Source of the DNA: a virus
Taxonomy: Duplodnaviria > Caudoviricetes
Strand: one strand, 5' to 3'
Length of the DNA: 24,936 nt
Virus record (IMG/VR): IMGVR_UViG_3300032318_001091
Location: 1 to 24,936 of that record
Shown: positions 14,119-24,868 of the stretch, one piece after another
Position numbering within the stretch: the stretch's first letter is position 1
How the letters are laid out: each line of letters starts with the position of its first letter
Program-made: the position numbers and the translations under genes
Notes under the pieces: generated by a model
The model's input: the letters and a program-made list of their open reading frames with translations, nothing else
What the model was told of the DNA's origin: nothing
The model's database searches: none

Positions 14119-14404
14119 GTTTACCGTTTCTTATCTTGAACACGATTTCGTCGATTTCTTCGTTCGTGCGCGCGACGTAGACAGGGACGCCAGACGTTCG
14201 CATGCGTTCAATCTCGCGGTCCTGTATCTTGCTGACCCGGTCGCCGAACGCCTTTATCTCGATGAAGGCGGCGTTGGGCCAGTCCCACCACACAAAGCAG
14301 TCTGGGCAGCCGTTACGGCCCTCCCAGCGCACCTTCCGGTAATGACCCCCACTCTTCTGCACAACGTGCTTGAGATGGTCCTGTAGGCGTCCTGCGGGCG
14401 TCAC
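14102..14404 (-). CDS. VRR-NUC domain nuclease
   Basis: PD-(D/E)xK pattern GCPD...FIEIK...Q in 100 aa, in the usual position next to the SNF2 helicase. Confidence 0.88.
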   Translation of the reverse strand: MTPAGRLQDHLKHVVQKSGGHYRKVRWEGRNGCPDCFVWWDWPNAAFIEIKAFGDRVSKIQDREIERMRTSGVPVYVARTNEEIDEIVFKIRNGKHDTDI

Positions 14405-14970
14405 AAACGCTCAAATATGGTGATTACACGGAAGCGGTGATTTGTTGATTTCACCATGCCGATGACGCCAACAATCCGCCACTCGTCTTTGCGATACATT
14501 GGTAGCACTTGGTCGAGCCAGATGACTGGCGTGCCAGAGTGAACGCCTGTCAACGCTTTGAGCACCTTGTTGCGCTTGACCATCGTCGGTTTGTAGTGTT
14601 CCGCGTCTTCTACACTATACGGCGGGTCTGCCAAAACAATGTCGTATTGCGAGAGAGGCACGTTTTCTAGCGATTGGGCGTCATCCAGATATGTTGGCTC
14701 CATGTCGGGATTGAGGTCGACGGTGTCGCCCGGCCAAGCGGACTGGTCAACGCGGCCCGAAAATACGTGCAAAGCCTTATCCTTGTCGGGGTATAGCGCT
14801 TTGATGCGTTTTAGGTAGCCATGCGGGTAGCCGCCGTAATAGCCGCTCTGCACGCCGTAGGCGTTGCCCATAATCCAAGTGCCGACAATGCGGCCATCTT
14901 CGGAGATAAACAGCGAACGGGGGAAGCCCGTCACCTTTGTGTAATTGTCGATACGGTCCTGTAAGTTCAT
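14401..14970 (-). CDS. Small amino-(N6-A/N4-C) methyltransferase-like protein
   Basis: SAM-binding motif I-like LHVFSG, then TVDLN, DDAQ and catalytic motif IV DIVLADPPY; SD AGGAAG upstream. Confidence 0.72.
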   Translation of the reverse strand: MNLQDRIDNYTKVTGFPRSLFISEDGRIVGTWIMGNAYGVQSGYYGGYPHGYLKRIKALYPDKDKALHVFSGRVDQSAWPGDTVDLNPDMEPTYLDDAQSLENVPLSQYDIVLADPPYSVEDAEHYKPTMVKRNKVLKALTGVHSGTPVIWLDQVLPMYRKDEWRIVGVIGMVKSTNHRFRVITIFERL

Positions 14971-15357: not shown

Positions 15358-17325
15358 TCAGTCCTTCCGATAGCGGTAGGTTTCAAAGCCCGCAGCCGAT
15401 AGGGGCAGGCCGATAGACCAGCTTGGGTTGATGGACATCATGTCGGCCAATACGTCAGCCGTGTACTCGGCGCGGTCGGGCACCTCGCAGACAAGCTCGT
15501 CATGTACGCGCAAGACGACCGGATAGTCGTTCTCCTCGGCGCGGCGCATACCCGTCATGAAGACGTCGCGTGCGACGGCCTGCACGATGTTCTCGACCAG
15601 CTTGCCGTAATAGGTGTCCAACAGTTCCCACTTGCGGGTGTATTGGTTCATGCCCTCGTACATGAGCTTGCCGTCGTCATCTATGTGCATGCTGCGGTAG
15701 CACAGGAAGCGCCCACTCGGGAGGCGGCAGCGCACGTATTCGACGCCGTCTGGCCCTTCCCTGCGGTCGAAGCGAACAAGGCCGCGCACGTCGAAGCTTG
15801 TACCAGCATCGCGGACGGCAGAGCGCGCCGCGCCCTCGACGTCGTACCAGAAGCGCTTTGTCGCAGGGTGAGCGTCACGCCACGCCTTTACGATGCCCAT
15901 GATGGTGTCGTCGTCCATGGCGTTGAACACCTCTCCGCCCATCTTGCGATAGGCACCGAGGCCGCCGCCATAGCCTCCAGCCAGCTCGGGAACCTTACCC
16001 TGCGTCTGGCGTTCCGACTTCGTCACCTCGAATGGGTCTTTGTCCAAGATACGCCCTGCCGTCACCTTGTACAGGTCGGCACCGACGCCACGGTCGTACG
16101 CCTTGAACGCCTCGATTTTCCAGTCCTCGCCTGCCATCCAAGCAAGCACGCGGCCTTCGATGTTCGACAAGTCGGCGATGACCAGCTTCTTGTTACGGCT
16201 GGCGACCAGCGCGCCGCGCACAGCGAACGCGCAGCGCTCGCTCACATTCTCGTAGATGACGTCTTCGCAGTCGTCCTTAAACGCACGTATGGTGGCCTCC
16301 TGCACGTCGCCGTCGAACCAGTCGGGCGAGCGGGGTAGGTTCTGCGGTTGGAAGATGCGGCCACTGTCGCGGCCTGTCCGCGCAGCCCCACAGAATTGTA
16401 TCGTCCCGCGCAGGCGTCCGTCGGACGACGCGGCGTCAATTAGCGCGCCGTATTTGGCAGGCGACGTAGCGGATGCCTGTTGGCGGATTTCGAGCAGTTC
16501 GCGCACGGTAGGGTCGAGTTCGCCCTTTAGCGCCTTCTCGACCGTCTCCTTGGTCAGGTCGTCTGTGTCGAAGCCGCGCTCGTCTTTCAGATACGACAAC
16601 AGCTTCTCGCGCTGCGTCGTCGAGGGCACCGCGCCGTCGGTTAGAACGGCTGCACGAGTGGCCAAAGCTCCCGAAGCTCGTCGAAAAGCTCGGATTGCGG
16701 ATTTGGCGAAGTCAACATCGACGGCGATACCACGGTCATTAATTCCTTGGTCGAGTTCCCAAAGGTGCCGCTCACTATGTGAATTGTTCCAAGACGGCAA
16801 ACGGCCATGTATGTTTCGCATCGCGTCCACATCGAGGCGGGCGTATTCGATAAATTGTTGCCACTCATCCGGGTGTGTCTCCACCGTTGCGCGCCGCACT
16901 TTCCAGTTTTTGGGGCACGGCTTCGTAAACAGTTGTATCAACCTTTTACCCGCTTTGTCTTTAGCTTTATCAGTAGGCACGCCGAGAACGTCGCAAAGCG
17001 TGCCGAGTGAGGCTGGCAGACTGTGTGCGAGGGCTGTCACCATGGTGTCGTCAATCTTTTCGACGGGTACGTGAACGCCTTGGTGGCGCAGGATGGTACG
17101 GTCAAAGGCGCTGTTGTGGATGACGACGCGCTCGGCGTAGTCAATCAGCCCCTGCAACCGCTCGCGCCAGTCGGGATGGCCCTGCGTACAGTCCCAGACG
17201 TCCACTTTGGTGTCGTCCGATGCAACGGCCACAAGCAGCACCTCCGCCTCTTCGGCATATCGGTGCGCGCCGTGCTTGATAGGCACGGTGCTGTACGTTT
17301 CGAGGTCAAGCCAAAGGGTGCTCAT
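15358..17325 (-). CDS. polA: Family A DNA polymerase with 3'-5' exonuclease (APSE/SPO2-like)
   Basis: ExoI DLET, ExoII HNSAFD, ExoIII YARLD; TGRDSG..FQPQN; motif A ADLSNIEGR, motif B R...GKVPELAGGYG, motif C VHDE. Confidence 0.95.
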   Translation of the reverse strand: MSTLWLDLETYSTVPIKHGAHRYAEEAEVLLVAVASDDTKVDVWDCTQGHPDWRERLQGLIDYAERVVIHNSAFDRTILRHQGVHVPVEKIDDTMVTALAHSLPASLGTLCDVLGVPTDKAKDKAGKRLIQLFTKPCPKNWKVRRATVETHPDEWQQFIEYARLDVDAMRNIHGRLPSWNNSHSERHLWELDQGINDRGIAVDVDFAKSAIRAFRRASGALATRAAVLTDGAVPSTTQREKLLSYLKDERGFDTDDLTKETVEKALKGELDPTVRELLEIRQQASATSPAKYGALIDAASSDGRLRGTIQFCGAARTGRDSGRIFQPQNLPRSPDWFDGDVQEATIRAFKDDCEDVIYENVSERCAFAVRGALVASRNKKLVIADLSNIEGRVLAWMAGEDWKIEAFKAYDRGVGADLYKVTAGRILDKDPFEVTKSERQTQGKVPELAGGYGGGLGAYRKMGGEVFNAMDDDTIMGIVKAWRDAHPATKRFWYDVEGAARSAVRDAGTSFDVRGLVRFDRREGPDGVEYVRCRLPSGRFLCYRSMHIDDDGKLMYEGMNQYTRKWELLDTYYGKLVENIVQAVARDVFMTGMRRAEENDYPVVLRVHDELVCEVPDRAEYTADVLADMMSINPSWSIGLPLSAAGFETYRYRKD

Positions 17326-17621
17326 CCGCGTGTCCCGTGCAGGATTTCGCTGACGCGGCCCGGATTGATGTTGTGCGCGTCGCCAATCTCTTGATGCGAT
17401 GCGTCTGGATTGTTAGCGGCCATAGCCCGAACGGACGCACGTACGTCTGCCGTGATACGCCTGCTCTTCACAGGCGCGCGGCTGTAGCTGCGGCGATACG
17501 TCTCCTGCATCAAAGCGTTGATGCGCAAGTTTATCTCATACTGCCGACGGGACAACTGCACGCCTTCATTGGTCAGTTCAGAAATCATTTCGCGGATTTG
17601 CGGGATTGTAAGTTTAGACAT
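17322..17621 (-). CDS. HTH DNA-binding protein (99 aa)
   Basis: C-terminal HTH ASHQEIGDAHNINPGRVSEILHG; SD GAGGAG 7 nt before ATG; ATGA overlap with polA. Confidence 0.75.
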   Translation of the reverse strand: MSKLTIPQIREMISELTNEGVQLSRRQYEINLRINALMQETYRRSYSRAPVKSRRITADVRASVRAMAANNPDASHQEIGDAHNINPGRVSEILHGTRG

Positions 17622-17630
17622 GCTGATACT

Positions 17631-17754
17631 CCTCTATTCTGGTGAGCCGCGCGCTTCGTGTATCAGCAACGCAGGAGCAACCCGCACCCGCGCGCGGCTC
17701 GCCAGAACAGAGGGTACGTCGGCTAAGGGTGGATAGAAACGCCGACGTACCCTC
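17631..17754 (-). ncRNA. Candidate structured antisense/regulatory RNA (double hairpin)
   Basis: Stem 17631-17654/17690-17713 (22 of 24 Watson-Crick) and a perfect 14-bp stem 17710-17723/17741-17754. On the minus strand, the loop at 17661-17682 is complementary to the conserved leader/SD of three early genes. Strand inferred from flanking genes. Confidence 0.65.
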
Positions 17755-17765
17755 GTTACTTAGCG

Positions 17766-18029
17766 CTAAAGCAAGTCCATGCCAAGCGCAGATTTATATG
17801 TGTCGAGGATGGCTTCCATCTCGGCACGGTCGTCCTTGGTCATTTTGCGGAGTGCCACAATCTGACGCATAGCTTTGGCGTCGTAACCGTTGGCCTTCGC
17901 CTCGCTGTAGACGTCGCGGATGTCGTCGGCGACGCCCTTCTTTTCTTCCTCGAGACGCTCGATGCGCTCAATGAAAAGCCGAAGCTGCTCCGCCGTCGGA
18001 TTTACCGCGTTGTGACCGATGTCGCTCAC
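17766..18029 (-). CDS. gapR: GapR-family (DUF2312/UPF0335) nucleoid-associated protein
   Basis: [50 protein letters not shown]...[10 protein letters not shown] closely matches the alphaproteobacterial GapR consensus. Confidence 0.93.
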
Positions 18030-19836: not shown

Positions 19837-20249
19837 GCCATTTCTGCTTCTAAGCGCGCGACCAGTTCTGGCCACAGTGTAGGGTCGAGCATCGAGGCAC
19901 GTTCTACGCCAAACTCGGCGAGGATTTTCGAGGTTTCTTCCTTGGAGCGCTTCTGTACAAAAAGCAGTACAACAGGCGCGACTTGCGTCTCGAAGTTGAG
20001 CGTGGCGATTTCCTCCGCCGGGGCGGCAGGGGTATTTTCCACGATTTCTGCGGGTTTAGGGGTGATTTCCTCCGCAGAGGCGGCAGGGGTATTTTCCTCG
20101 GCCACCTCCGTCTTGGCGACATCGCGTTCAACCTGCAACGCTTCAACCGCTGTGTTGACGTCGAGGTGCTTACGCAAGCTGGCACCAAGGGCCAGCAGCT
20201 TGTCGGCGACTTCGGGGATGCTGTTGCCTGTTACTTCAATCTTAATCAT
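19833..20249 (-). CDS. Hypothetical protein with Ala/Pro/Glu linker and small C-terminal helical domain
   Basis: Two-domain layout ending KILAEFGVERASMLDP..WPEL, as often seen directly upstream of DUF2800 genes. Confidence 0.75.
   Translation of the reverse strand: MIKIEVTGNSIPEVADKLLALGASLRKHLDVNTAVEALQVERDVAKTEVAEENTPAASAEEITPKPAEIVENTPAAPAEEIATLNFETQVAPVVLLFVQKRSKEETSKILAEFGVERASMLDPTLWPELVARLEAEMA
20007..20097. repeat. 34-bp direct repeat (57-nt period), in-frame ENTPAAxAEEI duplication
   Basis: 20007-20040 gatttcctccgccggggcggcaggggtattttcc versus 20064-20097 gatttcctccgcagaggcggcaggggtattttcc; 2 mismatches. Confidence 0.9.
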
Positions 20250-20544: not shown

Positions 20545-20729
20545 GGTTCGGCTCCCTGTTGTTTCGCAAGCTGGCGCGCTTCGCGCTTGCCGCTCACGGT
20601 GAACGCAGCCACGTTCGAGCGGCGTCCGTTTGCAATGCGGTTGATGTAGAGGGTCGGCGGGTATTTGTTGGTGCCCGTCGTATATTCAGCGGCCAGAACG
20701 GTGTCGGCGGCAAGTAATTCAGTGCTCAA
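20532..20729 (-). CDS. Hypothetical early protein (65 aa, TTG start)
   Basis: Strong SD AAGGAG 8 nt upstream; first gene after conserved regulatory element 1. Confidence 0.75.
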   Translation of the reverse strand: MSTELLAADTVLAAEYTTGTNKYPPTLYINRIANGRRSNVAAFTVSGKREARQLAKQQGAEPWNF

Positions 20730-20737
20730 TTTGGTTA

Positions 20738-20797
20738 CTCCTTCGTTGCTGATAGCCCCCTATGGACCATGCAATTACACATTGCAACCCTTTATTT
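20738..20797 (-). promoter_or_regulatory. Conserved promoter/operator plus leader element 1
   Basis: Minus strand: aaataaaggg TTGCAA tgtgtaa TTGCAT N14 TATCAGCAAC ga AGGAG. Confidence 0.75.
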
Positions 20798-22852: not shown

Positions 22853-23098
22853 TTAGTCGCGGTTGTTGGTCGGTAGGCGTAGCATCTCAATCAGGGCCGG
22901 GTCTACTAGTTCGCCGCGATTGACGTTGTATAATATGTGGATTTCTGTCGCGCGTGGCAAAGGCACATAGCCGCGCCGAAGCCATTGATAGACGGCTTGA
23001 TGGGTTACACCAAGCGAACGAGAAAAGGCCATTATGCCTCCCGCTTTGTCTATGGTGCGACGGAGCAACGCGACGCGCTGCGGCTTATCTAATATCAT
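22853..23098 (-). CDS. Cro-like HTH transcriptional regulator
   Basis: IDKAGGIMAFSRSLGVTHQAVYQW..RGYVP..RA..I...V.R.EL.DP is a classic Cro/YdaS pattern; lies upstream of the primase. Confidence 0.85.
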   Translation of the reverse strand: MILDKPQRVALLRRTIDKAGGIMAFSRSLGVTHQAVYQWLRRGYVPLPRATEIHILYNVNRGELVDPALIEMLRLPTNNRD

Positions 23099-23274
23099 GA
23101 GTATTTCCTGTTAATCTCTGCACGGAAGCTTTCGGGCCGTAGGCCGCACATCCGCTCCTCTTGCATGTATACTAAGCGCAGATTGACCAACTCTCGGTCA
23201 ATTTCTGCGATGCGACGCGTTAGTTGGTCGCGCTCTGCAAAGAGGGTTTTGGCTTCTTGGGTGGTGGTTGTCAT
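23095..23274 (-). CDS. Small coiled-coil hypothetical protein (59 aa)
   Basis: Start re-assigned to ATG 23274 (GGAG SD within element 2); ATGA overlap with the cro-like gene. Confidence 0.7.
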   Translation of the reverse strand: MTTTTQEAKTLFAERDQLTRRIAEIDRELVNLRLVYMQEERMCGLRPESFRAEINRKYS

Positions 23275-23280
23275 GTTACT

Positions 23281-23337
23281 CTCCAGTTGCTGATAAGGTT
23301 TAATTGCACATGCAACAGCGTCTTGCAACCCTTATTT
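23281..23337 (-). promoter_or_regulatory. Conserved promoter/operator plus leader element 2
   Basis: Minus strand: aaataaggg TTGCAA gacgctg TTGCAT N14 TATCAGCAAC t GGAG. Confidence 0.75.
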
Positions 23338-24518: not shown

Positions 24519-24800
24519 TCACAGCTCTCCGGCGAGGATGCGCCGGACGAGCGTCTGCGGGTCAACCCAGTTTTCAAAATAAGCCTTCGCGCCCTCATTG
24601 CCGTGCGCTTCTTCCGCCGCGAGGAACAGCTCGTTGTCGACGGCGCGCAGCGCGTTGACGTCCTCGCCGTAATATTCGAGATAGTCGTCACGACCGTACA
24701 AGCACGAGCGCGACGGCACTTTCACAATGCGGTACGCTGGCGGGTTGTTGCGGATGCGCTCGATGATGGCAGGTACGCGGGGGTCGGTTAGGTAGGACAT
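24519..24800 (-). CDS. Hypothetical early protein (93 aa)
   Basis: Start re-assigned to ATG 24800 (TAAGGAG 6 nt upstream, within element 3). Confidence 0.72.
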   Translation of the reverse strand: MSYLTDPRVPAIIERIRNNPPAYRIVKVPSRSCLYGRDDYLEYYGEDVNALRAVDNELFLAAEEAHGNEGAKAYFENWVDPQTLVRRILAGEL

Positions 24801-24806
24801 TGGTAT

Positions 24807-24868
24807 CTCCTTAGTTGCTGATATGGCCACCCGTAGACTATGCAAGCGGAGGTTGCAATACCTAATTT
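24807..24868 (-). promoter_or_regulatory. Conserved promoter/operator plus leader element 3
   Basis: Minus strand: aaattaggta TTGCAA cctccgc TTGCAT N16 TATCAGCAAC ta AGGAG. Confidence 0.75.

Follow-up and report, generated by a model that had tools for sequence, protein, structure and literature searches.

This locus raises the question of whether a single hairpin in the replication module of a phage can address the leaders of several early genes at once and, if so, what kind of RNA it belongs to. The DNA analyzed, here called the window, is a 24,936-nt stretch of IMG/VR record IMGVR_UViG_3300032318_001091, a record that is 43% complete. Its plus strand carries structural genes and its minus strand a replication module of the BPP-1/APSE type, with a Cro-like gene and genes for a primase-helicase, DUF2800, SSB, a GapR-like protein, DNA polymerase A, VRR-NUC, and an SNF2 helicase. 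Among named phages, the nearest DNA polymerases are those of Caulobacter phages RW, KcrB, RLK, and GB2A (59%), and that of BPP-1 is at 48%; together with the GapR-like gene, they point to an alphaproteobacterial host. Between polA and the VRR-NUC gene, a 189-aa gene (14401-14970, minus strand) matches phrog_3816, a PHROG annotated as DNA methyltransferase (E = 2.6e-42). A 138-aa gene contains a 40-nt direct repeat (90%; 20004-20043 and 20061-20100) that encodes a repeated acidic Pro/Ala-rich linker.

Read along the minus strand from the gapR stop codon, the segment of interest consists of a promoter-like pair of boxes, a hairpin (H1), a second hairpin (H2), a GAGGAG motif that lies partly within the H2 stem, and, after seven bases, the AUG of a 99-aa ORF. 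The features are as follows.

15358..17325, minus strand: DNA polymerase A gene (polA), with PF00476 and PF01612 matches
17322..17621, minus strand: 99-aa ORF (phrog_23243), first gene after the hairpin; stop codon overlapping that of the polA start (ATGA)
17621..17634, minus strand: own ribosome site; GAGGAG at 17634-17629, four bases of it within the H2 stem; 17629-17621 complementary to the loop
17631..17713, minus strand: hairpin H2; 12 bp, one central mismatch (C17701/A17643), 11 bp, 35-nt loop
17661..17682, minus strand: anti-leader segment in the H2 loop; anti-Shine-Dalgarno (anti-SD) and complement of the common leader start, ordered as in the leaders
17710..17754, minus strand: hairpin H1; 14 bp, 17-nt loop, 4 nt in common with the 5' arm of H2; sequence varies among relatives
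17757..17785, minus strand: predicted internal promoter; TTGGCA (17785-17780, in the last gapR codons), 17 nt, TAAGTA (17762-17757), predicted start near 17751
17766..18029, minus strand: GapR-like gene, the anchor upstream of the element; PF10073, E = 1.5e-35

An earlier note, made from the letters of this DNA alone, had described a 24-position stem (17631-17654/17690-17713) enclosing 17661-17682, and this stem was confirmed. Its two 24-nt arms are 92% complementary and form, on the minus strand, 22 Watson-Crick pairs, one G-U pair, and one C-A mismatch. Fold z-scores for 17615-17770 were -4.8 on the minus strand and -6.1 on the plus strand. The stem and loop stood as described, but the element turned out to be larger: a second hairpin, a buried downstream SD, a pseudoknot, a predicted internal promoter, and a possible cis role on the polymerase operon had been missed. 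A hairpin was also present at the H1 position in the relatives inspected. The H1 loop of the window (17724-17740) carries ATCCACCC on the minus strand, as do several otherwise different H1 stems (L008, L042, L071, and others).

Relatives were gathered by an SSB search, a stem pattern, and a polA search; the pattern favors close stems, whereas the protein searches do not. The 134 partly redundant gapR loci were reduced to 62 distinct H2 elements, all from uncultured relatives and kept behind gapR. L065 (unrelated match), L007 (incomplete locus), L138, L146, L151, and L153 (gapR but no H2), and L170 (no anchor) were dropped before these counts. Stem covariation was scored in 36 of the 62, hand-picked so that near-duplicates were thinned and the six most divergent left out. 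Both sides had changed in 16 of 21 pairs, and 95.4% of the cells were paired, a level that was reached by none of 500 shuffles; slid controls gave 41 to 56%. Across all 62 elements, wobbles read on the minus strand comprised 50 G-U versus 8 A-C, an asymmetry that favors this strand. Conservation of the structure on the minus strand, the strand favored by the earlier note, was thereby upheld, and the alternative of a plus-strand decoy lost ground. The single stem mismatch, 12 pairs from the base, is CA in 43, UU in 16, CU in 2, and CC in 1 of the 62, at a position that also served as anchor.

A model built from the alignment (R1) found one locus per genome in all five near-complete genomes. It gave weak matches in the BPP-1-like loci L155, L169, and L233 and none in the fetched regions of RW and BPP-1. 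In a motif-free scan, long stems were seen in 7 of 86 distant loci, with a threshold that missed some stems visible otherwise; none of the seven had a convincing leader match. Long stems with branched interiors lie before the polymerase operon at L155:9688-9814, L169:7502-7625, L233:9491-9614, and L041:9720-9800, all BPP-1-like, and no leader match was found for them.

The earlier note had proposed the hairpin as a candidate trans-acting sRNA, and a free small RNA found no support in the window. The terminator scan called no terminator behind H2, and the hairpin runs directly into the start of the next gene, so that the element reads as a 5' untranslated region (UTR) of the polA operon. It is thus likely, judged from its sequence, to be the 5' UTR of the polymerase operon and is not a proven free sRNA. 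In relatives, the place of the 99-aa ORF is taken by other genes or by polA itself, with the hairpin and start site kept. The predicted internal promoter at the gapR stop was not picked up by a sigma-70 scan of the window, whose own -10 box is degenerate (TAA-type). In 51 of the 62 distinct elements, the gapR stop is followed by a [CG]TAT[AG] box, in 2 more (window included) by a weaker TAA-type box, and in 9 by neither. The -35 part overlaps coding sequence and hence proves little.

The candidate targets are defined by a common leader. An exact copy of TATCAGCAAC occurs four times in the window, at 17661 on the plus strand and at 20754, 23295, and 24823 on the minus strand, compared with 0.01 expected from 100 shuffles. 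The earlier claim that three sense copies and one antisense copy are unlikely by chance was borne out. With one mismatch allowed, five copies were found versus 0.94 expected, the fifth lying within a structural gene. Against 20733-20754, the anti-leader segment forms 20 Watson-Crick pairs, one G-U pair, and one mismatch over 22 nt, precisely as had been claimed. The first T of this match is probably just upstream of the predicted start, leaving about 21 nt in the message. The three leaders are as follows.

20729..20787, minus strand: target leader P3; TTGCAA at 20787, leader start near 20753, GGAG, TTG start at 20729 of a 65-aa ORF
23274..23328, minus strand: target leader P2; TTGCAA at 23328, leader start near 23294, ATG at 23274 of a 59-aa ORF
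24800..24858, minus strand: target leader P1; TTGCAA at 24858, leader start near 24822, ATG at 24800 of a 93-aa ORF

The 65-aa ORF behind P3, the best match to the loop, heads the DUF2800-SSB-gapR operon, and the 59-aa ORF behind P2 precedes the Cro-like and primase-helicase genes. Each sense copy of TATCAGCAAC in the window lies 34 to 36 nt behind TTGCAA. In a loose search of the relatives, a TTG-type -35 box was found 34 to 36 nt before the motif in 132 of 136 box-bearing matches, and 72 of 208 SD-linked motif matches had no box. From this spacing, the motif should be where a sigma-70-type transcript starts. The leaders are predicted to be weakly folded (-3 to -6 kcal/mol). In the five genomes read whole, promoter-linked leaders were found only on the strand of the replication genes; the one opposite-strand flag (G006) was the element itself. 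The early promoters of the window (20787-20769, 23328-23310, and 24858-24840, minus strand) read TTGCAA-N7-TTGCAT, a repeat 13 nt apart that is also seen in many relatives and is possibly an operator for the Cro-like protein (22853-23098). At L143:536 and 5851 and at L144:3569, the 5' motif is kept in the leaders, and a small UUCG hairpin stands between motif and SD.

Pairing between loop and leaders was evaluated by energy calculations. When the 22-nt core, picked after the fact, was scanned for duplexes, P3 ranked best of about 24,900 windows (-35.8 kcal/mol) and P1 fourth, and P2 (-25.1) fell outside the top 12; with the whole 35-nt loop, P3 was only fifth in the raw scan. Accessibility-corrected binding, in which both partners must be opened, gave -25.3, -22.2, and -18.1 for the three leaders, compared with -5.4 +/- 2.4 for 24 other start regions (best, -10.9). 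The P1 and P2 values take in loosely paired extensions. Co-folding yielded -4.6 to -7.7 kcal/mol, not more favorable than shuffled leaders (-5.5) or other start regions, in a model that cannot place an intermolecular helix in a closed loop; the accessibility calculation was used in its place. The predicted duplex begins at position 1 of the leaders and covers the SD of all three, as expected from the earlier claim of ribosome-site occlusion at three early leaders. In the window, the complementarity is confined to the loop and ends before the stem arms.

Comparison of relatives establishes that loop and leaders co-evolve, as the earlier note had anticipated: variant loops occur with variant leaders. 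Beside loops of the common type, 101 of 119 leaders carried the exact complement and 18 differed (counted over redundant loci). Variant loops were matched by promoter-linked leaders in 5 of 5 cases in G004 and 6 of 6 in G006, by 3 of 3 leaders in L086, and also in L135. In L142, an identical extra base is present in both loop and leader, and in the L122-L130 group the SD-facing part has changed as well. A quick version of a polA tree puts these shifts at about five separate positions. Over 41 pairs, cognate duplexes between loop and P3 leader were more stable than shuffled pairings by 3.8 kcal/mol (0 of 10,000 shuffles, kinship uncorrected). Within the 32 loops of the commonest type, the advantage of cognate pairs was 1.4 kcal/mol (5 of 10,000, kinship again uncorrected). 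The own loop ranked 16th or worse for 12 of the 41 leaders.

Two to three cases were discordant overall. L078 combines a common loop with a sole detected leader of another type, for which its own loop ranks 35 of 41, and L139 has a terminal mismatch between loop and leader. L079 and G003 contain leaders with an internal A-C mismatch to the loop (3 of 6 and 2 of 8, respectively). Leaders with this mismatch tend to be the most upstream (L001:232, 735, and 1685; G003:24992 and 26016; G007:43725), with L121:12439 as an exception; the pattern would fit weaker binding to the earliest genes. It should be noted that covariation shows pairing and not its direction.

The element also has a predicted cis side. 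The 3' arm of the H2 stem is predicted to bury the SD of the next gene, with a mean unpaired probability of 0.16 over 53 elements. A predicted 9-bp pseudoknot joins 17629-17621 to loop positions 17660-17668 and extends to the A of the AUG. Complementarity between loop and start site reaches 8 bp or more in 35 of the 62 elements, where it takes at least seven different sequence forms, and is at most 5 bp in 21. It co-varies, yet may be lost while the anti-leader segment stays; loop-leader complementarity was retained without the pseudoknot in L014, L018, L021, L025, L028, L109, L122, and L140. The anti-SD is collinear with the leaders and not with the own ribosome site, and the leader duplex (-35) is far more stable than the pseudoknot helix (-12.1). 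L131:1679-1795, L132:1243-1359, and L133:1536-1649 have the same stem around another loop, which lacks the anti-leader core and whose only match is a 10-bp pairing with the own ribosome site. This form is perhaps purely cis-acting, on contigs too short to show early leaders. The idea that read-through transcripts free the own SD and internally started ones lock it was unsupported (0.19 versus 0.16; more than 0.1 higher in 9 of 53 elements, lower in 4).

Our preferred reading, which we hold with modest confidence to be correct, is that the loop pairs in trans with early and middle leaders and lowers their translation. Transcripts of the H1-H2 segment would start at the predicted gapR-stop promoter, read through from P3, or both, and the hairpin would act within the mRNA or after being cut free, e.g., by RNase III. 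Pairing would begin at the free 5' AUCAGCAAC and extend across the SD, so that the first ~20 nt of early and middle messages, from their start through the SD, would be bound and less protein made from them. The result would be feedback: transcription of the replication operon would turn the early operons down. Binding of an early leader to the loop would also release the pseudoknot in the roughly half of the relatives that can form it. Transcription of the segment, pairing in cells, and the sign of the effect are what we infer here. Repression in trans was put first because the duplex covers the leader SDs, the anti-SD is collinear with the leaders, the match outlives loss of the pseudoknot, and the stem need not open.

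The same pairing could be read in the opposite direction. The main output would then be on the polymerase operon: early 5' ends that bind the loop would compete away the pseudoknot and weaken the stem, and polA would be translated only after early messages have accumulated. The buried own SD, the recurrence of the pseudoknot in at least seven versions (including L131 to L133, which lack the anti-leader core), and the large energetic advantage of the leader duplex over the pseudoknot helix all speak for such an RNA-sensing switch. A precedent is offered by IsrK, for which the part of PMC4825925 consulted describes trans-activation of a locked phage mRNA. However, about a third of the elements keep the anti-leader segment with a pseudoknot of 5 bp or less, and pairing in the window stays within the loop, so that the lower stem over the SD need not open. 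We regard this switch as unlikely. It may be true alongside repression in trans. One mRNA-mRNA pairing would then silence all early messages through their common 5' tag and unlock translation of the polymerase operon in an apparently lytic phage, a combination that we entertain only tentatively. If it is true, this reciprocal hand-over would time the move from early to replication genes without a regulator protein.

Other outcomes of the pairing, or no pairing at all, have to be weighed as well. A processed hairpin might pair with nascent early leaders and cause premature termination or RNase III cutting instead of plain ribosome blocking. P3, the best target, stands at the head of the operon running into the element, and another complement follows immediately downstream; this is the seqA/seqC layout of P4 CI as given in the text consulted of PMC4825925. 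The stem, of 23 to 24 positions, also fits E. coli RNase III in length: according to the portion used of PMC6212723, this enzyme needs ~22 bp, and positions between its cut sites are paired in ~90% of targets; a typical substrate stem would also have A-U at D/D'. Against the preference for pairing between the cut sites, a central mismatch is present in all 62 elements (partly a consequence of anchoring) and may protect from cutting instead. There is no C4 fold, and this route appears improbable. It is more improbable still that a protein binds the motif, as DNA or as RNA (in an operator, an antiterminator site, or a plus-strand decoy), and that the inverted copy is one more such site. Altered protein specificity would likewise shift all copies together, and the TTGCA repeat, 13 nt apart, at each promoter and the Cro-like gene count in favor. 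Yet the copy is always inverted, within a covarying hairpin whose wobbles favor the minus strand, and single in the five near-complete genomes, and the complementarity runs over the SD and the variable spacer behind it. We give the least credence to a structure acting only in cis (a terminator or an RNase III stem with a ribosome-site lock) in which the leader match is the relic of a duplicated leader. Similar long stems without anti-leader do precede polA in some BPP-1-like prophages, as in the 7 of 86 distant loci, and the model matched L155, L169, and L233 weakly, but a relic would not track leader changes on several separate branches. Both the protein-site and the relic readings fit poorly.

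The element is a real, conserved, and uncatalogued structure, and the comparative sequence evidence for loop-leader pairing is good. Among 50,697 records of cultured phages, blastn found no match to the element, and the SSB-gapR stretch matched only in its gapR part. Rfam gave no match in the window at E <= 1, none at gathering score in eight loci, and on the 241 nt only chance hairpins far below the cut-off. No RNA data set was listed as a holder; four runs of one study, taken as RNA by guess and two of them flagged as probably DNA, held contigs mostly 85 to 95% alike and said nothing on expression, ends, or strand. A literature search, covering few subscription journals and no supplements of motif surveys, listed no published description of the element, and the portion consulted of a review of phage sRNAs (PMC12197685), covering sar, OOP, aQ, and others, contained nothing of this layout.

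In gene order (DUF2800, SSB, polA) and in having two adjacent hairpins before polA, the locus resembles Caulobacter phage RW and Bordetella phage BPP-1, but the regions fetched from these two contain neither a loop complementary to a common leader nor a match to model R1. The earlier note had invoked kinship to the C4 and CI RNAs of P1/P7 and P4 and a role as an immunity switch. The kinship found no support: the RF01695 covariance model had no match at E <= 10 in the window's record. C4 RNA, in the parts of PMC5320573 and PMC4825925 consulted, has three stem-loops with two target loops (a' and b'), is processed by RNase P at a GG(W) start, and has its role in lysogenic immunity. The present element has a single long stem with one 35-nt loop. 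Its H2 stem begins with CCUC and not GG. The likeness to C4 and CI is one of logic. From the same partial sources (PMC5320573 and PMC4825925), the shared traits are a position within a longer transcript, a loop complementary to sites up- and downstream, paired loop/target substitutions, and an occluded ribosome site. The H2 loop is indeed complementary to ribosome-site sequence and co-varies with its targets. Neither tyrosine integrase (PF00589) nor S24 repressor (PF00717) was matched in any of the five relatives of 98 to 100% completeness, so the immunity role is unsupported as far as these two families tell.

On its cis side, the element is comparable to Gifsy-1 IsrK (PMC4825925, in part) and the synthetic crRNA/taRNA pair (PMC4737173, in part), where a 5' UTR locks its own ribosome site and can be opened in trans, messenger and regulator being combined in one RNA. 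The trigger of IsrK is a short isoform of the same RNA, as far as that source describes it, whereas the candidate triggers here are the 5' ends of other messages. The designed RNA of the crRNA/taRNA pair rearranges a hairpin, again in the part of the source consulted, whereas pairing here occurs within the loop only. The phage antisense RNAs sar, OOP, aQ, C4, CI, and IsrK mostly target one gene or operon of a temperate phage, according to the portions consulted of PMC12197685, PMC5320573, and PMC4825925. A lytic cycle would be timed differently by a loop that addresses a whole promoter class via a common 5' tag. Because the natural variants of loop and leader already form matched specificity pairs, the idea can be tested on plasmid reporters without phage culture, and the pairs could serve as orthogonal riboregulators in alphaproteobacteria.

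The closest counterpart in mode of action is IS10 RNA-OUT, which is encoded in cis, opposite one target. Unlike it, the present element lies on the same strand as its three targets, 3 to 7 kb away from them, and stands before the start site of another operon; across genomes, three to eight targets share the common leader. The likeness is in the contact itself: in the RNA-OUT/RNA-IN pair, as described in the part of PMC4737173 consulted, the loop of a hairpin binds an unstructured 5' tail and so covers the ribosome-binding site, as is predicted here. By this analogy, the element likely acts most like RNA-OUT, but as a trans-encoded, multi-target form.
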